The translations under genes and the position numbers were made by a program. Shown piece after piece: positions 1-62,725 of a DNA stretch of 64,000 nt. The DNA is from a virus (taxonomy: Duplodnaviria; Caudoviricetes): positions 50,946-114,945 of the IMG/VR virus record IMGVR_UViG_2940244548_000002; one strand, written 5' to 3'. The notes under the pieces are model-generated. The model saw nothing but the letters and a program-made list of their open reading frames with translations. It did no database searches and was not told the origin of the DNA. Position 1 is the first letter of the stretch. Every line of letters starts with the position of its first letter.

Positions 1-2
1 CT

Positions 3-245
3 CCTATCCCATACGATGCTGGAGATCATATAAGCTACAAGTATCATAAAAAAGCGGATATGCAAGAGGTAAGGCGTGAAATCTCCCTACTGAAAGAGCA
101 ACTATCAAATGGTGATTATAAGATAGTGAAATGCTATGAGGCTAACCTACTTGGTGAGCAACTGCCTTATGATATGGCTAAACTTCATGCTGAGAGAGAT
201 GAGATAAGAAACCGAATAAATGAATTAGAAAAATTATTGCAATGA
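3..245 (+). CDS. Phage protein, 5'-truncated by window edge (possible tail-fibre chaperone)
   Basis: Frame of ORF 60..245 is open back to base 3; DYKIVKCYEA...LHAERDEIRNRINELE motif seen in tail-associated small proteins. Confidence 0.5.
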   Translation, partial: PIPYDAGDHISYKYHKKADMQEVRREISLLKEQLSNGDYKIVKCYEANLLGEQLPYDMAKLHAERDEIRNRINELEKLLQ

Positions 246-475
246 AATGGATGAAAGAAAGTAACCGAATGAAGCATTTTTTATATGCTATTCCCTGTAG
301 TTTGTTATTTACATTTTTCTTTTCGGCTGGGCTTGCTGCTGGAATGGAATTTAAAGACAAAACCTGGGGAGGTAAATGGGATTGGTTGGATCTGACTGCT
401 ACCTTAATGGGAGGCTTGGTAGGTCAAATCATACAGATATTGCTTATCTTAATGATTAAGCATCTATGTTTTTAA
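242..475 (+). CDS. Small membrane protein
   Basis: Hydrophobic; EFKDK..GGKWDWLDL motif resembles 31818..32078 (EIRDK..GRFDWLDL). Confidence 0.6.
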   Translation: MKWMKESNRMKHFLYAIPCSLLFTFFFSAGLAAGMEFKDKTWGGKWDWLDLTATLMGGLVGQIIQILLILMIKHLCF

Positions 476-509
476 ATAAAAGTGTGTTTGTCAGACACAT
501 TAAATAGTT

Positions 510-517
510 ATCTTTGC
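510..517 (+). promoter_or_regulatory. Bacteroidota sigma-70 -7 box (TATCTTTG) upstream of the DGR1 target gene
   Basis: Matches TAnnTTTG; preceded by GTGTG-N9-CACAT at 482-500. Confidence 0.55.
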
Positions 518-571
518 AGTATTAACTTAGTGAATATAATATGATTTCGTTAAATATAAACAGTTACAGTT

Positions 572-1924
572 ATGGGATTACTTTTAGGAAGTGGCTCAAC
601 TAAGCCACAATACCCCTATGATATGTGGTATGGCGTACAAGGGGATTTTACCAGCAGGGATTATAAACTTACTCGTGTTGGTAATTTGGATTTACATAAG
701 ACTTTGCCCATTCAAAAGAAAATCAAGCGGTTTGTAGAAAACCCTGATGGTTCGGTAAAGTATTATTTGCATCAAAACGATAGCCGTAAAAAGGAGAGTG
801 GAGCTGCTGCTATCCTTGATAGTACGGATGGAAATGTAATGCTTGAAAAGCCTGAGTATTATTTCCGCTTGGAGATTGATGGAACAAAATGGCTACGTGC
901 GTGGTCTGAGTATCCGCTGCCTGGCTTTACTAAGATGGAAAGAAAATCTATTTCTCCATGGTATGCAACTATTGATATAACAAACAGCGTTGCTGTTTCT
1001 GGTTGCTGGCTTACATGGGCTGGGGATAATATCGCTCGTGATGCAAATGGCATTGTGATATTGACAGCTAACGCTGCTCAATTCAGAGGTGGATCTGGAG
1101 CTGGTGATGCTGCCAAAGATGGCACATATAATTCTCAGCTTGGTATGGCACGAACATCTATCTCTAAGGCTGGAGTTCGTCCGTTGTGCAAAAATGGTAC
1201 TCATCATGGAGCTTACAGAGCTTACAATGAGTTAGCCTGGTTACAGCGGTGTGAATATGCCTCTCTCCATTGCCAGGACACATATAATGAAACTCTCACT
1301 TCTGAGGGCTACAAACAGGGTGGTTTAGGATCTGGCAGTGTTGTGGCTGGAGGAGAATGGAATACATGGGGAGCTTATAAGCCTTTTGTTCCTTGTGGTA
1401 CAACTGCTACACTCGGAAACAACACAGGTAAGGTAGCCTACACTATCAAAGGATGGACTGGTGGAGATAAAACCGTTCAGGTAACATCATACAGAGGCTT
1501 GGAGGTTCCATTTGAGTATTTGTATATGTTGGCTGATGATGTACTTATTTATCATGGAGCGGATAGATCAACGGCTTATGTGTGTGAGGATCCATCCAAA
1601 TTTACATCACACTCTGATAGTTCTACAGCAGTTCCTGTAGGATATGATCCTATCTCCGATCTGCCACGAACAAATGGTTATATCCTCCAGCTTACACATT
1701 CAGCTAAAACATACTCATTCCCTGAGACTGTTGGAGGTGCTGCTAATGCTGGAGGATGTGATTACTATTATCAACCTGTTACTGATGGTGGTTCAGGCTG
1801 GTATGGTGCCCTGTTGTCTGCTAATGCGTCTTCTGGGGCGAGTGCTGGGTTCGGTTTCCTGAACACGCTTAATCGCTCCTCGTACTCGTATGCGTACGTC
1901 GGGTTCCGCTTGTGCCGTTTTTAA
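572..1924 (+). CDS. DGR1 target: tail adhesin / receptor-binding protein with C-terminal CLec-type variable region
   Basis: C-terminus ...YVGFRLCRF encoded by VR1; homologous along its length to 59177..60580. Confidence 0.85.
   Translation: MGLLLGSGSTKPQYPYDMWYGVQGDFTSRDYKLTRVGNLDLHKTLPIQKKIKRFVENPDGSVKYYLHQNDSRKKESGAAAILDSTDGNVMLEKPEYYFRLEIDGTKWLRAWSEYPLPGFTKMERKSISPWYATIDITNSVAVSGCWLTWAGDNIARDANGIVILTANAAQFRGGSGAGDAAKDGTYNSQLGMARTSISKAGVRPLCKNGTHHGAYRAYNELAWLQRCEYASLHCQDTYNETLTSEGYKQGGLGSGSVVAGGEWNTWGAYKPFVPCGTTATLGNNTGKVAYTIKGWTGGDKTVQVTSYRGLEVPFEYLYMLADDVLIYHGADRSTAYVCEDPSKFTSHSDSSTAVPVGYDPISDLPRTNGYILQLTHSAKTYSFPETVGGAANAGGCDYYYQPVTDGGSGWYGALLSANASSGASAGFGFLNTLNRSSYSYAYVGFRLCRF
1803..1919 (+). 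repeat. DGR1 variable repeat (VR1)
   Basis: 117-nt ungapped match to 1990-2106; 13 of 15 mismatches are at TR adenines, the 2 others lie at the 3' (IMH) end. Confidence 0.95.
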
Positions 1925-1989
1925 CGGGGGCACGGACGGCACTGCAAAAACGATAATTGAAATAATGAAAATAAAAGGTTGCAACGGTC

Positions 1990-2106
1990 ATGGTGCCCTG
2001 TTGTCTGCTAATGCGAATAATGGGGCGAATGCTGGGTTCGGTATCCTGAACACGAATAATCGCTCCTCGAACTCGAATGCGAACATTGGGTTCCGCTTTT
2101 ACCGTT
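1990..2106 (+). ncRNA. DGR1 template repeat (TR1)
   Basis: 10 in-frame AAY codons; lies between VR1 and the RT gene. Confidence 0.95.
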
Positions 2107-2250
2107 ACAGGTTTTCCTTGAAAAAGAAAAGAAAATCAGACCGTTGTAACCATGCCTCACAGAGACTACTTGTAGTCGGCAAAATAATATGAATTAGATC
2201 GGTGTGAGTAAGGAATTGAAAGCTCTGATATAAACCAACGGCACATTTAT

Positions 2251-3315
2251 ATGGATGAGTTGTATTTTAAAGATAGTAAACGATTAAAGAATATTTATCC
2301 ATTAGTTTATGAAACATCTAATTTGGTAAGATCACAGTATAATGCACAAAAAGGAAAGGGCGTAAGAAAGGAAATAACCCGATTCAATAGCAATATCTGT
2401 GAAAACTTAGCCCACATATATGATATATTGGAAACTGAGAGCTACATACCTGGTGATTATCGTGTTAAAATCATCCAGGATCCCAAAGAGAGAACAATAA
2501 TGATAGCTCCGTTTTTCCCTGATCGGATCATTCACCATTGTATCATAAATGTTTTAGGCAATGTTTGGACTAAAGTTTTTATCCCTCAAACATACGCTTG
2601 TATCAAGGGGCGTGGAACCCATAAGTGTATGGAGGATATTCACAAAGCTCTGATAAGAGATAAGAAAGGTACTAAATACTGCCTAAAGATTGACATAAAG
2701 AAATTTTACGATAATGTAGATCACTCAGTTCTTAAAAAGATCATCCGCTATAGAATAGCTGATGAACAAATGCTGAGGCTGTTGGACAAAGTTATAGATA
2801 GTAACGGTAGCGATAAGGGATTGCCTATAGGCAATTTTACAAGCCAGTACCTGGCTAATTTGTATTTAGCATACTTCGATCACTGGATCAAAGAGAATCT
2901 AAGGGTAAAGTATTATTTCAGGTACATGGATGATATTGTTATTCTGCACCAAAGCAAAGAGTTCCTACATGAACTACTTGATAAGATGGGGCTTTACCTT
3001 GGTGCTGAGTTAAAACTGGAGATAAAACAAAACTGGCAGATTTTCCCAGTTGATTCTCGTGGAATTGATTATGTAGGATTCAAACAAAACCATTACGGAA
3101 TCCTACTAAGAAAAGGGATTTTAACAAGATTCTACAAGAAATACAACCGTGTGAGGAAACAGTATAACATCTCCGATGAGACAGTAATTAAACACCTCTT
3201 TCCGTCTGAATATGGCTGGATAATCAGATGCTCTGAGGAACATAGTAAATTCATAATTAAAAATTGTATCGACAATGGAAAAGCAAAATGTATTAACTAT
3301 CGGGCTGCTGGCTGA
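2251..3315 (+). CDS. DGR reverse transcriptase (RT1)
   Basis: GLPIGNFTSQYLAN (DGR-type SQ motif), YFRYMDD catalytic motif, 354 aa, next to TR/VR. Confidence 0.95.
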   Translation: MDELYFKDSKRLKNIYPLVYETSNLVRSQYNAQKGKGVRKEITRFNSNICENLAHIYDILETESYIPGDYRVKIIQDPKERTIMIAPFFPDRIIHHCIINVLGNVWTKVFIPQTYACIKGRGTHKCMEDIHKALIRDKKGTKYCLKIDIKKFYDNVDHSVLKKIIRYRIADEQMLRLLDKVIDSNGSDKGLPIGNFTSQYLANLYLAYFDHWIKENLRVKYYFRYMDDIVILHQSKEFLHELLDKMGLYLGAELKLEIKQNWQIFPVDSRGIDYVGFKQNHYGILLRKGILTRFYKKYNRVRKQYNISDETVIKHLFPSEYGWIIRCSEEHSKFIIKNCIDNGKAKCINYRAAG

Positions 3316-3709
3316 TGAAAAGCCTGAGGTGTTCTTTGACTTATATAATGGGCAGGGAACTATTCTATATAACCATAACATTAAAGAGGTTCTGGTTATC
3401 AAGGATGAGGATGGAGGAACAGTAATAACAACTGACAGCAAGAAATCAAACGGTAAGATGTTTCAGTATGATAGTGTTCGGGTGGACTATCCGAAAACTG
3501 GAGATAACATCTTTAGCACGTTGATCACTGCAAAATATCCACCAGCAACAGAAAGCAAATTGCTCAATGAGTATCAATCTGCTGTAATGGGATTGCTGGA
3601 CAAAAGCCGTAAAAAGCCGTATGAAAATTTCCTCAAAGATCGTTTAGCAATTCGTGAGCAGATTGAGGCTGATTGTGAAACCTCTAACATCCCTATGGAG
3701 CATGAATAA
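3275..3709 (+). CDS. Conserved RT-adjacent protein A
   Basis: Homolog of 61918..62307 (LYN.N, Y.S.RVDYP, E.KLLN.Y, ADC...NIP). Confidence 0.75.
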   Translation: MEKQNVLTIGLLADEKPEVFFDLYNGQGTILYNHNIKEVLVIKDEDGGTVITTDSKKSNGKMFQYDSVRVDYPKTGDNIFSTLITAKYPPATESKLLNEYQSAVMGLLDKSRKKPYENFLKDRLAIREQIEADCETSNIPMEHE

Positions 3710-4097
3710 TATAGTCGATTTTGAAGATGATCCTATTATTGGATCTGCTGATGGAGATGATTTGTTTGATTGTGAATATTCAAGTGTTGATGCACTGATA
3801 AATGAGGTTATTGTTTTTACAGGAGTAAAGACAGATGTTCAAACTGAAAATGGTTTGCGAACACTTGTAGCCTTTGGAGAGGGATCTGCACGCTCAGCAT
3901 TTTTCACAGAAAGCAAAAGATTAAAGGATGTTGTTTGTAATCCTGATCGGGTGTTTCCGTTTCGTGCTATAATTAAAGTGGTTCGATTCGGCAATAACAC
4001 AGGATTCAAATTCTTTTCTCCCAGCAGTCCTATCACTCAACAGGACAAAGAAAATTTCGATTATTATAAACGTAACAAATATAAAAGAAATAGATAA
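3702..4097 (+). CDS. Conserved RT-adjacent protein B
   Basis: Homolog of 62312..62725 (V.T.NG.R, AFFT.SK.L, FPF..IIKVV); ATG at 3702 chosen as start. Confidence 0.75.
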   Translation: MNNIVDFEDDPIIGSADGDDLFDCEYSSVDALINEVIVFTGVKTDVQTENGLRTLVAFGEGSARSAFFTESKRLKDVVCNPDRVFPFRAIIKVVRFGNNTGFKFFSPSSPITQQDKENFDYYKRNKYKRNR

Positions 4098-4576
4098 TGG
4101 GAGAGGTTTTTCAAGGTGCAGAAAATATGCTAATGATCGTTGTGTTAGCCTGTATTATTGTTTTTATAGCAATGTGTGTAGATCTTGTTAGTGGTTTGCA
4201 TAAGGCTAAGCAACGCAAAGAGATCCGTAGCAGTTACGGATTAAAGCGATCTCTAAGTAAGTTTATCATGTATGAGGGCGGTATGCTAATAGCTTGTGGA
4301 GTAGATATATTGATCCACGTTTGCAAGCTGTTAAAGGTATTCCATTTGGATATTATCTATGGGATCCCGATTATCACCTGTTTACTTGGTATCTTTTTAC
4401 TGGTGGTAGAGTTTGTGAGTGTGCGAGAAAAAGCAGACGATAAAACAAAAACAGAAATTTCCAGGGTGGAGCAATTAGCAGCTAAAATGGTTAATAAGGA
4501 TGAGCTGGTAGGTGCTCTTACTCAGGCGATAATCAACGCTGGCAAAGGAGGTAATAGTGATGAAAGTTCTGATTGA
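4097..4576 (+). CDS. Phage holin family protein
   Basis: Three hydrophobic segments, D..SG..KA...S.GL.R and E..SVREK motifs, directly before amidase. Confidence 0.8.
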   Translation: MGEVFQGAENMLMIVVLACIIVFIAMCVDLVSGLHKAKQRKEIRSSYGLKRSLSKFIMYEGGMLIACGVDILIHVCKLLKVFHLDIIYGIPIITCLLGIFLLVVEFVSVREKADDKTKTEISRVEQLAAKMVNKDELVGALTQAIINAGKGGNSDESSD

Positions 4577-5144
4577 CAACGGACACGGTGTAAATACACC
4601 TGGTAAACGCTCTCCAGATGGTTCTCTGAGAGAGTACCTGTATGCAAGAGAAATAGCTGATAGAGTGGTATCCGAGTTGAAAAACAGTGGTATTGATGCT
4701 GAGCGTATTGTTAAGGAGGATGTTGATATATCTATCTCTGAGCGGTGTAAACGTGCGAATGCCATTTACAAAGCAACAGGAAAGAAAGCTATACTGATCT
4801 CTGTTCACTGCAATGCTGCTGGAAATGGATCCAGCTGGATGAATGCACGAGGCTGGAGTGTTCATGTTTCAACCAACGCCTCCAAAAAGAGTAAGGAGCT
4901 GGCTACTTGCTTTGCTAATATCGCTATGAGTATGGGGTTAAAGGTTCGTAAACCATTACCGAATCAACCCTACTGGGTGCAAAACCTTGGTATTTGTCGT
5001 GATACGAATTGTCCAGCTATTTTAGTTGAGAATTTTTTTATGGATAACAAACAGGATTGTGAGTTTCTTCTTTCTCCAGAGGGTAGAGATCAGATCGTGG
5101 ATCTACACGTAAATGCAATCCTCAAATACATCAAAGGAGTATGA
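4560..5144 (+). CDS. N-acetylmuramoyl-L-alanine amidase (endolysin)
   Basis: IDNGHG, SVHCNA, PAILVENFFMDN Amidase_3 motifs. Confidence 0.93.
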   Translation: MKVLIDNGHGVNTPGKRSPDGSLREYLYAREIADRVVSELKNSGIDAERIVKEDVDISISERCKRANAIYKATGKKAILISVHCNAAGNGSSWMNARGWSVHVSTNASKKSKELATCFANIAMSMGLKVRKPLPNQPYWVQNLGICRDTNCPAILVENFFMDNKQDCEFLLSPEGRDQIVDLHVNAILKYIKGV

Positions 5145-5728
5145 ATAAATATCTAATTTCAGCAATAGCTGTATTATTTCTGGCTGTAGGGCTATTGTCC
5201 TGGCAGTTGGATAGAACGAAAACAGAGAAAAAGCGACTATCAAGCAATCAGGAGGCTTTGCTTTCTGATATTGAATTTTATAAAACAGAGGCTGGAGATA
5301 ATGCTGCATCAGTTCAACGGCTGGAGCTTTCAAAATCGGAGCTGGAAAAGCATTGTGAGGATCTTACCCAAACAGTAAAGGATCTCAATCTTAAAGTTAA
5401 GCGGATCCAGGCAGCATCCACTACTGTTACCAAAACAGAGTATAAGATTCAAACGGTTGTAAAGGATAGTATAATTTATCGTGATGTTCCTGTGATTGTT
5501 CAATCCATAGTGTATAAGGATCCTTGGATAGATATAGATGGGGTTATTGATAGCTCTATGTTCTCTGGTAACATTAGTACCAGAGATACCTTAGTTCAAG
5601 TGATTCACCGAGTGCCTAAAAAGTTTTGGTTTATAAAGTACGGAACAAAAGCAATAAAACAGGAGGTGGTGAGTAAGAATCCTCATAGTAATATTGTGTT
5701 CACTGAATACATCGAATTGAAAAAATAA
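5141..5728 (+). CDS. Spanin-like / lysis accessory protein
   Basis: N-terminal TM helix then coiled coil, following the endolysin. Confidence 0.6.
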   Translation: MNKYLISAIAVLFLAVGLLSWQLDRTKTEKKRLSSNQEALLSDIEFYKTEAGDNAASVQRLELSKSELEKHCEDLTQTVKDLNLKVKRIQAASTTVTKTEYKIQTVVKDSIIYRDVPVIVQSIVYKDPWIDIDGVIDSSMFSGNISTRDTLVQVIHRVPKKFWFIKYGTKAIKQEVVSKNPHSNIVFTEYIELKK

Positions 5729-5756
5729 TTTTTCTTCATATATTTTTGTAGATCGG

Positions 5757-5790
5757 AACTGTCTTAGCTGTGAAGCTGGGGCAGTTTTTA
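5757..5790 (+). terminator. Intrinsic terminator after lysis cassette
   Basis: AACTGTCTTAGCT-GTGA-AGCTGGGGCAGTT stem-loop then T run. Confidence 0.75.
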
Positions 5791-5957
5791 TATTTGCTAT
5801 TTTATTTGTAATTTTGCATTACCGATAATCAAAATCGGTGTTGCATTAGAGAGATCCCTTTTTGCTTTCGGGTATTGGGGATCTCCTATTTTTAGTAAAA
5901 GTTCTACAATAGTTCTACGAAAAATAGAAAATCAAATGTAACTTATTGAATATCAGA

Positions 5958-5980
5958 GATAGAATAGAAGTTTCCTAAAC
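5958..5980 (+). other. att-like core of prophage 1 (tRNA-Arg(CCT) D-arm/anticodon fragment)
   Basis: GATAGAATAGAAGTTTCCTAAAC resembles GATAGAATAAGAATTTCCTAAAT in the tRNA at 6069; GTTCTAC direct repeats at 5901-5918 resemble integrase arm sites. Confidence 0.65.
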
Positions 5981-6068
5981 ATGCGCAAAACTAAGAGGCT
6001 GTAAAAGTAGATAGATTTTTTGGAGAGGTAAAATTTAGCATTAAAATAAGATTTAAAAAATGGCGTAA

Positions 6069-6140
6069 GCCCCTGTAGTTCAACGGATAGAATAAGAATT
6101 TCCTAAATTTTAGATAGCAGTTCGATTCTGCTCGGGGGTA
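6069..6140 (+). tRNA. tRNA-Arg (anticodon CCT), probable attL of prophage 2
   Basis: Cloverleaf: GCCCCTG/CGGGGGT acceptor, AGAAT-TTCCTAA-ATTTT anticodon arm, AGCAG-TTCGATT-CTGCT T arm; directly upstream of integrase. Confidence 0.92.
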
Positions 6141-6143
6141 CAC

Positions 6144-6176
6144 AAAGAGAGCTAACTTTCAAAAGTTGGCTCTTTT
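6144..6176 (+). terminator. Terminator after tRNA
   Basis: AGAGCTAACTT-TCAA-AAGTTGGCTCT hairpin plus T run. Confidence 0.75.
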
Positions 6177-6217
6177 CGTTTCAGCACTTTTGTTGCTATA
6201 AACGTATTTTTGCTGGC

Positions 6218-59176: not shown

Positions 59177-60580
59177 ATGGGTTTATTGATTGGTGTGGGG
59201 AATACAACCCCACAATTTCCATACAATTCACTTTGGTATGGAATAAAAATTAACCTCAAAAACACAGGCAAGAGTACGGATGATGGTAAACTGGAGCGGG
59301 TTGGAAACTTAGACCTGCACAGAAGTTTGCCAGTGCATAGCCGTATTAAACGCTTTGTAGCTAAAGAGGATGGAACAGTAAATTATTGGCTTGGAGCTAA
59401 TGACAGTACATTAAAAGAGGGCGGTGGTGCTGCAAAGCTAAATGCTGTAGATGGCAATGTAATGCTTTACAAACCCGATTACTGGAGGCGAATAGAGTTT
59501 GATGGTGATTACATGCTGGTTGCTGTTAGTGAGGTAGAATTACCGGGATTTACTTATATGAAAGAGAGCGCACGTAGTCCGTGGTTAGCTACTCTTGATA
59601 GGGTAAATAACAAGGCTGTTAGTGCATCCTTTTTGCAATGGAATACTGATGGCTCAATAAAAAGAGATGGTACTACAGGTTTACCTGCTTTGACCGATAA
59701 TGCTGCTGACTTTAGAGGAGGCAATAATACAGCTGGCAATGACAATACAGTAAAGACACAACTGGGTATGCCTGCAACATCCATTACCAAAGCAACTGCA
59801 CGTACAAGATGCAAAGCCATTAACGCAAAATGGCATCTTGGTGGCTATCGGTTCAGAGAGGAAATGTCTTGGCTTATGGCTATTGAGTTTGGTACTCTGG
59901 ATTCACAAGCTGCCTACAATGCAGCAAAAACAGCAGATGGATATGCACAGGGAGGGCTTGGTAATGGTACTTATGTTGTTAGTGGAGAATGGAGTGCTTT
60001 TAATGGCTATTATCCTTTTATCCCATGTGGTGTAACAGCAAAACTGGGTAATAACACAGGTATTGTAGATTATGTTATTAAAGGCTGGACTACAGGAGTA
60101 GACAAAACGGTAAAGGTTGCCAGCTATAGAGGCTGGGAAGCTCCACAACAATACCTTTGGGATTTAAACGATGATGTTATTATCTGGCATGGTAAGCCTA
60201 GCGATGGTAACACATCTCTTTTCTATGTATGCGAGGATAGCAGCAAGTTTGTTACTCCAGCAGATACTTCTACAGATATACCTGATGGATACAAAGAAGT
60301 TGGAGCTTTGCCCAGAGCATCTGGCTATATTGTTTCTATGGCTTCTGGTAATGGTTGGACTTGCCCAGATAGCGTAACTGGAGGGGCTAGTAACAAAAAT
60401 TATTGTGATTATTATTGGTATCCTGCTGTTAGTGATACAGCTAACTGGGGTTGGTTTTGCCTCCTTGCTGGTGTCAGTGCGACTTCTGCGGAGGATGCGG
60501 GTGTGCGTGGAGCGTATGCGGGTACTCGTGGCTCGACTTCGGATACGCATGGAGGTTTTCCCTTGTGCCTTGATTTATAG
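59177..60580 (+). CDS. DGR2 proximal target: tail adhesin / receptor-binding protein
   Basis: Homolog of 572..1924; ends ...HGGFPLCLDL encoded by VR2. Confidence 0.87.
   Translation: MGLLIGVGNTTPQFPYNSLWYGIKINLKNTGKSTDDGKLERVGNLDLHRSLPVHSRIKRFVAKEDGTVNYWLGANDSTLKEGGGAAKLNAVDGNVMLYKPDYWRRIEFDGDYMLVAVSEVELPGFTYMKESARSPWLATLDRVNNKAVSASFLQWNTDGSIKRDGTTGLPALTDNAADFRGGNNTAGNDNTVKTQLGMPATSITKATARTRCKAINAKWHLGGYRFREEMSWLMAIEFGTLDSQAAYNAAKTADGYAQGGLGNGTYVVSGEWSAFNGYYPFIPCGVTAKLGNNTGIVDYVIKGWTTGVDKTVKVASYRGWEAPQQYLWDLNDDVIIWHGKPSDGNTSLFYVCEDSSKFVTPADTSTDIPDGYKEVGALPRASGYIVSMASGNGWTCPDSVTGGASNKNYCDYYWYPAVSDTANWGWFCLLAGVSATSAEDAGVRGAYAGTRGSTSDTHGGFPLCLDL
60453..60571 (+). repeat. DGR2 variable repeat (VR2)
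   Basis: 119-nt ungapped match to 60668-60786; all 14 mismatches at TR adenines. Confidence 0.96.
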
Positions 60581-60667
60581 GGCAATGCGTGGCGTTTTTT
60601 TGAACACATGGGTGTGTTTCAATACAAAGTTTCTTTGAAATAATAATAAAACGGTTTACGGAGATGC

Positions 60668-60786
60668 GGTTTTGCCTCCTTGCTGGTGTCAATGCGAATA
60701 ATGCGGAGAATGCGGGTGTGCGTGGAGCGAATGCGAATAATCGTGGCTCGAATTCGGATACGAATGGAGGTTTTCCCTTGAACCAT
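60668..60786 (+). ncRNA. DGR2 template repeat (TR2)
   Basis: Nine in-frame AAT codons; template for both VR2 and VR3. Confidence 0.96.
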
Positions 60787-60904
60787 TACGGTTTTCCTTT
60801 AATGCGAGAACTATTCTTATCTCCGTAAACCTTGCCACTTGGCAAAATAATACGGTTAAAATAAAGTGCTGGTAGGCTTTATGCTCGAAAGCTCTTATTA
60901 GACA

Positions 60905-61912
60905 ATGGCACAGAGAATATATAATTGTTACTGGAAAGTATGCGACCCACAAAATGTATTACATGCAACATATAATACAGTAAAGGGCAAAAAGCGTAGG
61001 CATGATGTTCAACGCCTATTAAACGGCAATTACATACAATCCGTTACAGATGTATGGGAGATGTTGGAGAAGCAAACCTATGTGCCAAGTAAATATCACA
61101 CGAAAATTATCAACGATGGTAAAGAACGTAGGCTTATTATAGCTCCTCTATACCCAGATAGGATAGTACACCATTGTTTGATTGATGTGATTGAGAATGA
61201 TTTAAGGAAACTATTTATTGCAAACACCTATGCCTGTATAAAAGGGCGTGGAATGCACAGCTGCTTATACTCTTTGAATAAGGCTCTACAAAGAGATAAG
61301 AGAGGTACTAAATATTGCTTAAAACTCGACATACGGCATTATTACGATAGTATTGTGCATGATATACTGAAAGATATTATTGCGCATAAAATCGGAGATA
61401 AACAAATGCTCTGGTTAATAAATACAATAATTGATAGTACGGAGGGTGGTATCGGTTTGCCAATAGGTTTTTTAACTAGCCAGCATTTTGCTAACCTTTA
61501 TTTAACTCCTTTTGACCACTGGGTTAAGGAGGTATTGAGGGTAAGATATTATTATCGGTACATGGATGATATGGTAATATTGAGTGATAGCAAGGATAAA
61601 CTACATACCATACTGGATAGAATAAGAGAGTACTTACAGGAAAGGCTACAGCTAAAAATAAAAGATAATTGGCAGATATTCCCTGTAGATGCACGCTCTA
61701 TAGACTTTGTGGGCTATAAAAGCAACCACTATAATATACTAGTCCGAAAGAGTATTTTATACAGGTATTGGAAAAAGTTACACAAGGTTGCCAAAAAGTA
61801 TGGGTTTATTGATGAGACTATAATAAAGAAAGAGTTAGCTGCCCACTGGGGATGGCTTTTGCATTGCAGTGAGGAGCATAAAAATAAAATATTTGAAATT
61901 TCTAAAATGTAA
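60905..61912 (+). CDS. DGR reverse transcriptase (RT2)
   Basis: GLPIGFLTSQHFAN, YYRYMDD; homologous to RT1. Confidence 0.95.
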   Translation: MAQRIYNCYWKVCDPQNVLHATYNTVKGKKRRHDVQRLLNGNYIQSVTDVWEMLEKQTYVPSKYHTKIINDGKERRLIIAPLYPDRIVHHCLIDVIENDLRKLFIANTYACIKGRGMHSCLYSLNKALQRDKRGTKYCLKLDIRHYYDSIVHDILKDIIAHKIGDKQMLWLINTIIDSTEGGIGLPIGFLTSQHFANLYLTPFDHWVKEVLRVRYYYRYMDDMVILSDSKDKLHTILDRIREYLQERLQLKIKDNWQIFPVDARSIDFVGYKSNHYNILVRKSILYRYWKKLHKVAKKYGFIDETIIKKELAAHWGWLLHCSEEHKNKIFEISKM

Positions 61913-61917
61913 AAATT

Positions 61918-62307
61918 ATGAATGACAGATTAAGTAAAGGGATACGTAGCGATGAGCTACAGCCCACATTCGATGTTATCGACAAACTGAAAGGTACAAC
62001 GCTTTACAACTATAACCAGCACTGGGTAGAAGTAGAGCAAGAAGATGGTAAAAAGGCAAAAAAGAATGAGTATAATAGCCTTAGAGTTGATTATCCAGTA
62101 AATGCCAATACCGTTTTTGGCACTCTTCTTACAGCGGTTTATCCAGAGAATGAAGAGCAAAAGTTACTCAACGATTACAATGCAGCCATTGCTGGTATTG
62201 AGCCAGAGGAGAAAAAGCAGCCGTATTTAGATTTTCTAAATGCCCGCAAATCTTTTCGTGCAATGGTTGATGCAGATTGTACAACAAACAATATCCCATT
62301 GAAATGA
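61918..62307 (+). CDS. Conserved RT-adjacent protein A
   Basis: Homolog of 3275..3709. Confidence 0.75.
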   Translation: MNDRLSKGIRSDELQPTFDVIDKLKGTTLYNYNQHWVEVEQEDGKKAKKNEYNSLRVDYPVNANTVFGTLLTAVYPENEEQKLLNDYNAAIAGIEPEEKKQPYLDFLNARKSFRAMVDADCTTNNIPLK

Positions 62308-62311
62308 TAGT

Positions 62312-62725
62312 ATGGGAGCGGAAACATTTGATTTTGCAGACCTTCCACTGCAAGGGGAGGCTGCAAGCTCTACAATGCCCAGCGGTGATTATCCCTCTAT
62401 TGATGAGGTAATAAATAAACCGATATGGGTTACTGGTTTTACCAATAATGTAGAGACTGCAAATGGCAACAGATGTGTAGTTAATTTTAAGTGGGAACTG
62501 GAGGAGGCAGAAACAGCCTTTTTTACATCCTCTAAAAAGCTAATATCTGTGCTAACCAATGCGGGCATACGTTTTCCTTTTCATACAATAATTAAGGTGG
62601 TGTTCATCCGTGAAATGGCTTCTTTCGTTTTTCGCAGTAGTAAAGAAGCAATTTCACAGGAGGACATGGATAGCCTTAATATGTATTTAATTAAGAAACG
62701 TAGTTATTTGAAACAAAGAAGATAA
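62312..62725 (+). CDS. Conserved RT-adjacent protein B
   Basis: Homolog of 3702..4097. Confidence 0.75.
   Translation: MGAETFDFADLPLQGEAASSTMPSGDYPSIDEVINKPIWVTGFTNNVETANGNRCVVNFKWELEEAETAFFTSSKKLISVLTNAGIRFPFHTIIKVVFIREMASFVFRSSKEAISQEDMDSLNMYLIKKRSYLKQRR

Follow-up and report, generated by a model that had tools for sequence, protein, structure and literature searches.

The window analysed here, a stretch of 64,000 nt, carries two DGR cassettes of the same layout, DGR1 at 572-3315 and DGR2 at 59177-61912. In each cassette, the gene for a tail-protein target with a C-terminal VR is followed by the TR, a spacer, the gene for the reverse transcriptase (RT) and two small ORFs. The target gene of DGR1 (572-1924) matches PHROG 5302, tail protein. 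The repeats and the RT genes are located as follows.

1803-1919, plus strand: VR1, at the 3′ end of the tail-protein gene 572-1924; a repeat of TR1 with 87% identity
1911-1919, plus strand: fixed, IMH-like end of VR1 (its last 9 nt), TGTGCCGTT
1990-2106, plus strand: TR1; its tail CCGTT (2102-2106) pairs with AACGG of the candidate primer motif
2251-3315, plus strand: RT of DGR1 (RVT_1, E 1.9e-21)
60453-60565, plus strand: VR2, at the 3′ end of the tail-protein gene 59177-60580; a repeat of TR2 with 90% identity
60564-60569, plus strand: fixed end of VR2, TGTGCC
60668-60780, plus strand: TR2; the tail CCATT (60783-60787) lies just past the repeat
60905-61912, plus strand: RT of DGR2 (RVT_1, E 1.1e-18)

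Thirteen of the 15 mismatches between TR1 and VR1 fall at TR adenines, as do all 11 of those between TR2 and VR2. Both cassettes are recognizable as DGRs by this adenine-biased TR/VR pair and the adjacent RT gene with its RVT_1 domain. The first cassette ends one prophage (window 1-6200, holin at 4097-4576). There is a tRNA at 6069-6140, after which comes a second, related prophage (6200-64000) that ends with the second cassette. The two appear to be tandem prophages, each about 58 kb long and of the phage Versailles type.

The end of VR1 also forms part of a hairpin (1912-1933, GTGCCGTT-TTT-AACGG(GGG)CAC) that extends across the stop codon of the target gene. The fixed VR1 end is the 5′ strand of this hairpin, and the 3′ strand resembles a motif of the spacer, AACGGCACA. 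The hairpin may be the counterpart of the DNA stem-loop that lies beside the IMH in BPP-1.

A covarying stem around the TR

The first-pass annotation of this DNA had reported that a 13-bp inverted repeat, here called the clamp, encloses the TR in both DGRs. Both repeats are indeed present, with the following arms.

1977-1989, plus strand: 5′ arm of the DGR1 clamp, GGTTGCAACGGTC
2139-2151, plus strand: 3′ arm of the DGR1 clamp, candidate counterpart of the cPRT Stop strand discussed below, GACCGTTGTAACC
60653-60665, plus strand: 5′ arm of the DGR2 clamp, GGTTTACGGAGAT
60819-60831, plus strand: 3′ arm of the DGR2 clamp, ATCTCCGTAAACC

The DGR1 clamp consists of 12 Watson-Crick pairs and one G-U pair, and all 13 positions are paired in the DGR2 clamp. 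Inverted repeats of this length with a spacing of 80-260 nt arose in two of 300 dinucleotide shuffles of DGR1 and in none of 300 for DGR2, and the stem, with the TR looped out, is present in the MFE and centroid folds of both RNAs. The elements that had been listed as common to the two loci are all there as well, namely TTGAAATAAT..ATAAAA upstream, ACCRTTAC(A)GGTTTTCCTT after the TR, GAAAGCTCT, CAAYGGCACA and a TGCC..GGCAAAA hairpin, which in DGR1 has an extra GACTAC-TT-GTAGTC stem. The first of these, an A/T-rich box (1957-1976 and 60636-60652), abuts the 5′ arm in DGR1, DGR2 and close relatives, and may be a promoter or the 5′ end of the DGR RNA.

With the two RTs as queries, we collected 90 loci from IMG/VR with RT identities of 31-80%, of which 82 have adenine-biased TR/VR pairs. 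The search for clamps was anchored on the hairpin-plus-AAA signature downstream of the TR, and compared the 18 nt before the hairpin with the 45 nt before the TR. The clamp was found in at least 75 of 80 related IMG/VR loci and is represented by 52 distinct arm pairs. Its consensus is 5′-GGUU(G)N8-10 upstream of the TR and N8-10(R)ACC before UUGCC-loop-GGCAAAA. The median duplex energy in these loci is −16.4 kcal/mol for cognate arms, compared with −9.7 for non-cognate arms. In an alignment of 41 distinct sequences (termed type A, with one bulged G), the clamp is 98.6% paired and both sides have changed in nine of its 12 pairs; the covariation is 0.494, compared with 0.19 for shuffled sequences and at most 0.14 with slid partners. 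Among the 10 closest relatives, which include both copies in the window, 98.4% of positions are paired and both sides have changed in nine of 14 pairs.

An independent set of species-representative genomes yielded 80 further loci. The canonical clamp is found in 69 of the 75 Bacteroidota loci that could be analysed, with 62 distinct arm pairs, and its carriers span Flavobacterium, Chryseobacterium, Elizabethkingia, Bacteroidales, Chitinophagales, Sphingobacteriales and Ignavibacteria. Across the viral and genome loci, more than 100 different arm sequences are represented. The earlier proposal that pairing is kept by compensatory change, made from the two window copies, is borne out by this covariation across homologues, and the clamp is confirmed as a real, strongly covarying RNA element.

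Two G:C pairs at the hairpin-proximal end of the clamp are invariant (41 of 41 type A sequences and 10 of 10 of the closest relatives). Elsewhere in the stem G-U pairs are frequent; at one pair, for example, 23 of the 41 type A sequences have U-G. Because such pairs would be C-A mismatches on the other strand, we conclude that the clamp acts as plus-strand RNA. In nearly all IMG/VR loci the homology between TR and VR begins between −8 and +10 nt from the 5′ arm. This position agrees with the earlier suggestion that the DGR RNA folds with the TR looped out of a closing stem, and it fits a stem that limits cDNA synthesis and so has a stop function.

A DNA search of the phage collection returned one relative only, the isolated Bacteroides phage Versailles (ON453897.1, host B. 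caecimuris). It carries the same cassette, with the clamp GGGUUGUGGCGGC/GCUGCCACGCCC and the spacer motif AACGGCACAAG.

Correspondence with the BPP-1 cPRT Stop and with Rfam RT-17

The cryo-EM structure of the BPP-1 RT-Avd-RNA complex contains a duplex between avd and spacer (Sp) sequences that flanks the TR and is termed the ‘cPRT Stop’ (Handa et al., bioRxiv 2023, Nature 2025). In this duplex, a stretch of avd that lies just upstream of the TR (369-379) is base-paired to spacer nt 59-70. The duplex is followed by a short hairpin and by adenosines that are unpaired and make A-minor contacts to its G:C pairs, and the composite element contacts the RT in the solved complex. BPP-1 cDNA ends 4-8 nt before the duplex, and deletion of the upstream strand abolishes priming. 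Stop duplexes with an average length of 13 bp were predicted in 207 of 278 DGRs in a survey of DGR RNAs that comprised Avd-containing DGRs only. Restoring the BPP-1 duplex by compensatory change did not restore activity (Handa et al.), and base pairing alone is therefore not the whole function of the element.

The loci examined here have the same parts in the same order. A duplex spans the TR (12-14 bp), and a short stem-loop with unpaired adenosines is located 3′ of the spacer strand. As in BPP-1, a strand just upstream of the TR forms a duplex (11-14 bp) with a downstream spacer strand, G:C pairs of the duplex are located at the end beside the short hairpin (4-5 bp here), and unpaired adenosines follow the hairpin. 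A single-stranded stretch and a stem-loop of the RT-binding type come next, the TR is looped out, and TR homology ends beside the upstream strand. One difference is that the upstream strand is located inside avd in BPP-1 and is intergenic here. By analogy, the invariant hairpin-proximal G:C pairs noted above are consistent with A-minor contacts of the A-run as in BPP-1.

On these grounds the clamp appears to match the published cPRT Stop of the BPP-1 DGR RNA. The first-pass annotation had asked whether such a fold was already described, and the answer is that it was; as first noted, the clamp is a correct rediscovery of published biology. The resemblance to the a1/a2 arms of retrons, which had been raised in the same place, holds as an analogy only. 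In both systems inverted repeats bracket a reverse-transcribed template and lie beside a cis-priming nucleotide. However, retron RTs belong to another clade, the present loci have neither msr/msd nor a branching G at the stem, and the product here would be a mutagenized cDNA for retrohoming.

The spacer downstream of the TR contains the following elements.

2153-2184, plus strand: SL1 hairpin of DGR1, TGCC...GGCA with the inserted GACTAC/GTAGTC stem; the A-run 2182-2184 is conserved
2198-2229, plus strand: SL2 of DGR1, candidate RT-binding element, with a conserved internal loop GAGUAAG/GAAAG and covariation
60828-60915, plus strand: spacer RNA of DGR2, Rfam RT-17 (RF03020), 51 bits, above the gathering score of 40.4
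60833-60844, 60845-60847 and about 60864-60897, plus strand: SL1, A-run and SL2 of DGR2

The UGCC-loop-GGCA hairpin followed by AAA(A) is conserved with covariation in the alignments. Between this A-run and SL2 lies an A-rich single strand, in the position of the BPP-1 ‘Thumb Ring’. SL2 has covarying stems and an internal loop in which (U/A)GGUA(G/A) is opposite GAA(A/G), and it takes the position of the RT-binding stem-loop. This internal loop may be akin to an AGUA/GAA loop-E motif.

Judged by its match to the Rfam model, the ‘structured spacer’ of the earlier annotation is RT-17, which is already catalogued. An 18-nt insertion in SL1 keeps the DGR1 spacer (2148-2248), which aligns with the full RF03020 model at 20.9 bits, below the gathering score of 40.4. 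The RT-1 to RT-19 motifs adjoin RT genes, and roles in retrons or DGRs were only speculated on when they were described (Weinberg et al., 2017; PMC5737381). SL1, SL2 and a 3′ conserved motif of the AAAAGCA type are features of the RF03020 model. It differs from the element described here in that it begins within the 3′ arm, of which it includes the last 4 nt, and thereby leaves the long-range clamp outside the model, and in that it includes no pairing of its 3′ motif to the ends of TR and VR.

A candidate primer strand at the RT start

The last conserved element of the spacer is a motif that lies at the start of the RT gene and combines complementarity to the end of the VR with a shorter complementarity to the tail of the TR.

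2237-2245, plus strand: candidate primer strand of DGR1, AACGGCACA; 9 of 9 nt complementary to the VR1 end (1911-1919), 5 bp with the TR1 tail
60904-60912, plus strand: candidate primer strand of DGR2, AATGGCACA; AATGG pairs with the TR2 tail, GGCACA is complementary to the VR2 end

In most viral loci this motif is the longest complement to the VR end within the spacer, with 8-12 nt matched exactly, compared with 4-6 nt to the TR. In the independent set of genomes, 46 of 67 loci likewise have a VR-complementary motif no more than 15 nt from the RT start. Its sequence is CAAYGGCACA in the cassettes of the window and AAAGCAAAG(GC) in most relatives. Motif and VR end change together, as in the pairs AACGGCACA/TGTGCCGTT, AAAGCAAAG(GC)/(GC)CTTTGCTTT and AAAGCGAA/TTCGCTTT, and there is also a AACAAGGC variant. 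Some of the differences between VR and TR under the motif are located at TR positions that are not adenine, from which we conclude that this stretch of the VR is a fixed, IMH-like end that did not arise by mutagenesis.

The 5′ half of the motif covaries with the TR tail. Among 10 sequences, six have CCGTT:AACGG and four have CCATT:AATGG, and other lineages have TGCTTATA:TATAAGCA as against TGCTTGTA:TACAAGCA. The pairing is short, with 4-5 bp in general and no more than 3+2 bp in the CTGAGCT subgroup; in type A it was assessed by script, as MAFFT places the motif inconsistently in alignment A2.

BPP-1 served as a control for the complement test. The segment recovered there is AGGTGGTCA (Sp48-56), with 9 nt complementary to the VR and 5 nt to the TR. 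This segment is identical with the primer strand of BPP-1 as defined by experiment, whose last nucleotide, A56, is the one that primes (Naorem et al., 2017; PMC5703328). As the test recovers Sp48-56 in BPP-1 and the same signature is found here, it points to 2237-2245 and 60904-60912 as the primer strands of the two cassettes. In both systems a spacer segment matches the 3′ end of the TR imperfectly (IMH*) and the 3′ end of the VR perfectly (IMH) (PMC5703328). The difference is one of place: in BPP-1 the primer strand is located 2 nt 5′ of the stop strand, whereas here the candidate is located about 60-90 nt downstream, at the RT start. We consider it probable, from these complementarities, that the primer strand has been relocated to the 3′ end of the spacer. 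The earlier proposal that the clamp defines both the priming and the stop points would then stand in part, in that the stop function fits, the ends of the TR are probably positioned by the clamp, and the likely primer strand is a separate element, the CAAYGGCACA motif. Moreover, because the motif lies 3′ of the 3′ arm of the clamp and its TR partner lies 5′ of this arm, the two helices would cross and form a pseudoknot; the corresponding helices are nested in BPP-1.

The start codon of the RT (ATG, 60905-60907, in DGR2) falls within the motif in DGR2 and its relatives, and the DGR1 motif stops 5 nt short of the ATG. In DGR2, the T on which this start codon depends covaries with an A in the TR tail (CCATT). 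Given that the motif overlaps the RT2 start, priming and RT translation from one RNA may be mutually exclusive, and part of the conservation of the motif could serve translation.

In general, no primer strand nested 2 nt 5′ of the spacer strand is found in these loci, but the picture is ambiguous in the sub-lineage of the window, where an insert of 25-35 nt with a small hairpin lies between the TR and the 3′ arm.

2110-2137, plus strand: lineage-specific hairpin GGUUUUC/GAAAAUC of DGR1, between TR1 and the 3′ arm

We therefore considered that this sub-lineage combines a cPRT-Stop-like clamp with BPP-1-like priming, from a strand directly 5′ of the 3′ arm (GAAAAUCA, 2131-2138, in DGR1; GAGAACU, 60806-60812, in DGR2) that folds back on GGUUUUC past the TR. 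CAAYGGCACA would then serve only for recognition of the target (IMH) or for RT translation. The strand occupies the position of the BPP-1 primer strand, which is located 2 nt 5′ of its stop strand, and the hairpin recurs with different sequences in W1, W2, L001, L012 and L013. The equivalent hairpin of DGR2 (60790-60812) is present in the MFE fold, and the MFE fold of DGR1 leaves the two strands unpaired together. However, the hairpin is missing in L015, whose RT is 72% identical, and in 41 of 41 type A relatives, and its strand is not complementary to the VR end as the BPP-1 primer strand is. It is the RT-proximal motif that carries the VR-complement signature in all lineages, and BPP-1-like priming from the inserted hairpin consequently seems improbable to us.

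Apparent absence of Avd and a proposed mechanism

The first-pass annotation had suggested that the RNA may work without Avd. PF05635 matched neither the window nor any of eight related phage records, of which seven have a completeness of 95% or more; three PF05635 genes are located elsewhere in this genome, outside the window. A search with PF05635 misses the Avd of BPP-1 itself (L095, 3021-3407), which is detected by PF22296 (bAvd-like) and NF033474; these two are the models by which a lack of Avd is best judged. PF22296, which found the BPP-1 Avd at E 2e-37 as a positive control, had no hit to the window, to phage Versailles or to any of three related complete genomes, and NF033474 had none to the two ORFs after the RT. 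An Avd HMM built from the three host PF05635 genes also gave no match, and this HMM likewise misses the BPP-1 Avd. The suggestion thus holds as far as the PF05635 and PF22296 profiles can show.

Avd occurs in about 74% of DGRs and is not obligatory, and about a quarter have no avd homologue; DGRs without accessory genes constitute architecture A, to which 29% of the surveyed DGRs belong, and ‘Lineage 3’ (PMC5758913). Avd is poorly conserved, and a helper that is divergent or encoded by the host is conceivable. The RNA itself points in the same direction. The Avd-binding stem-loop occupies Sp3-33 in BPP-1, and in type A relatives the TR and the 3′ arm lie only 1-21 nt apart, a gap too short for such a stem-loop. 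Unlike BPP-1, the present loci have no Avd gene that the profiles detect, and in most of the relatives a stem-loop for Avd binding is missing between the TR and the duplex.

The two small ORFs downstream of the RT were examined separately. The first lies directly after each RT (phrog_11557; 3275-3709 and 61918-62307), and its products are 37% identical between the cassettes. Its place beside the RT is conserved in the W lineage and, detectably, in part of the type A loci, with 25-34% identity in distant loci. The AlphaFold model of its product (pLDDT 91) shows a beta sheet and three helices, and gave no PDB fold match at E 0.001 or better. The product was considered as a candidate substitute for Avd; its predicted structure does not resemble a four-helix bundle and is not Avd-like. 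The second ORF is phrog_29953 (3702-4097 and 62312-62725). The sub-lineage that encodes phrog_29953 (L001-L017) is also the only one in which the extra hairpin is found between the TR and the 3′ arm, and type A loci have neither.

From the observed helices and their covariation, the complementarities and the lack of an Avd profile match, we infer stop and priming roles, a priming nucleotide and independence from Avd, and these can be combined in one mechanism. We are fairly confident that the long-range stem is a cPRT-Stop-like helix of the DGR template RNA, apparently in an Avd-free setting. The template RNA would extend from the 5′ arm through the TR and the spacer into the RT mRNA, with the helix closing the TR into a loop of about 150 nt. 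By analogy with BPP-1, the RT would bind the spacer modules and the helix would dock on the RT, such that both ends of the TR are held side by side; the helix would also be needed for the start of cis-primed cDNA synthesis. The motif at the RT start would anneal to the TR tail beside the clamp and prime the cDNA in cis. Synthesis would then proceed round the TR loop until the polymerase is physically blocked at the 5′ arm, and this block would set the 5′ limit of the sequence transferred to the VR. The RNA-primed cDNA could anneal to the VR through the perfect match between RNA and IMH, which would preserve directionality. The presumed stop, priming and A-minor roles are all carried over from one distant system, BPP-1.

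Two other explanations of the stem fare less well than a cPRT-Stop-like helix. The stem might be a general element of RNA stability or processing, such as a nuclease protection or RNase site, with no direct role in reverse transcription. Any closing stem stabilizes an RNA domain, and the arms are located at the likely 5′ end of the transcript. However, a helix of 12-14 bp whose terminal G:C pairs are invariant and which is followed by a fixed hairpin and A-run, all kept throughout the phylum, is more specific than this role would demand, and the same composite element touches the RT in the BPP-1 complex, all of which makes a pure stability element very unlikely. Least credible of all is that the repeat acts in DNA (as a cruciform, recombination site or protein-binding site) or as retron a1/a2 arms that give rise to msDNA: inverted repeats do flank the msr-msd of retrons and a DNA stem-loop beside the VR aids BPP-1 homing, but the common G-U pairs argue against a DNA structure, the arms flank the TR and not the VR, adenine-specific TR/VR mismatches mark DGRs, no msr-like structure with a branching G was seen, and the NCBIfam retron RT models gave weak, sub-threshold matches only.

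The cPRT-Stop-like reading yields an RNA map that comprises, in order, the 5′ arm, the TR, the 3′ arm, the hairpin with its A-run, the RT-binding stem-loop and the primer or IMH-complement. By this map, the RNA modules on the RT side of the BPP-1 complex are retained in the lineage, the module on the Avd side is lost and the primer strand appears to have moved. What seems to extend beyond the literature is an Avd-less lineage, phylum-wide as judged by homologous loci, in which the clamp is kept, the Avd module is lacking and the primer strand, complementary to the IMH, is relocated. The claim to novelty draws on the covariation and on one positive control, the BPP-1 test. More tentatively, and with a little less than even confidence, we propose that the Avd-less DGRs of Bacteroidota and their phages constitute a re-wired RNP, in which the clamp is kept and the primer strand lies on the RT start, pairs through a pseudoknot and is the antisense of the invariant 3′ end of the target. 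If this is true, the RNA-primed cDNA would anneal to the VR like an Okazaki fragment, and use of an RNA as both template and primer would exclude RT translation from the same molecule. Avd-less DGRs include those of abundant gut Bacteroides phages. Phage Versailles offers a cultivable model for the Avd-less cassette, and a compact, Avd-free template design could serve tools for DGR-based directed evolution.

The targets of the type A relatives have two features of their own. GCAAA(A/G) is located downstream of the VR in these loci, and many of them (L018-L090) have a single TR that is preceded by two paralogous VR-bearing segments in tandem, spaced by about 385 nt. The segments (2177-2371 and 2560-2754 in L018, for example) are about 70-80% identical, with mismatches at all bases. 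Such tandem segments may be two targets or a duplicated lectin domain.
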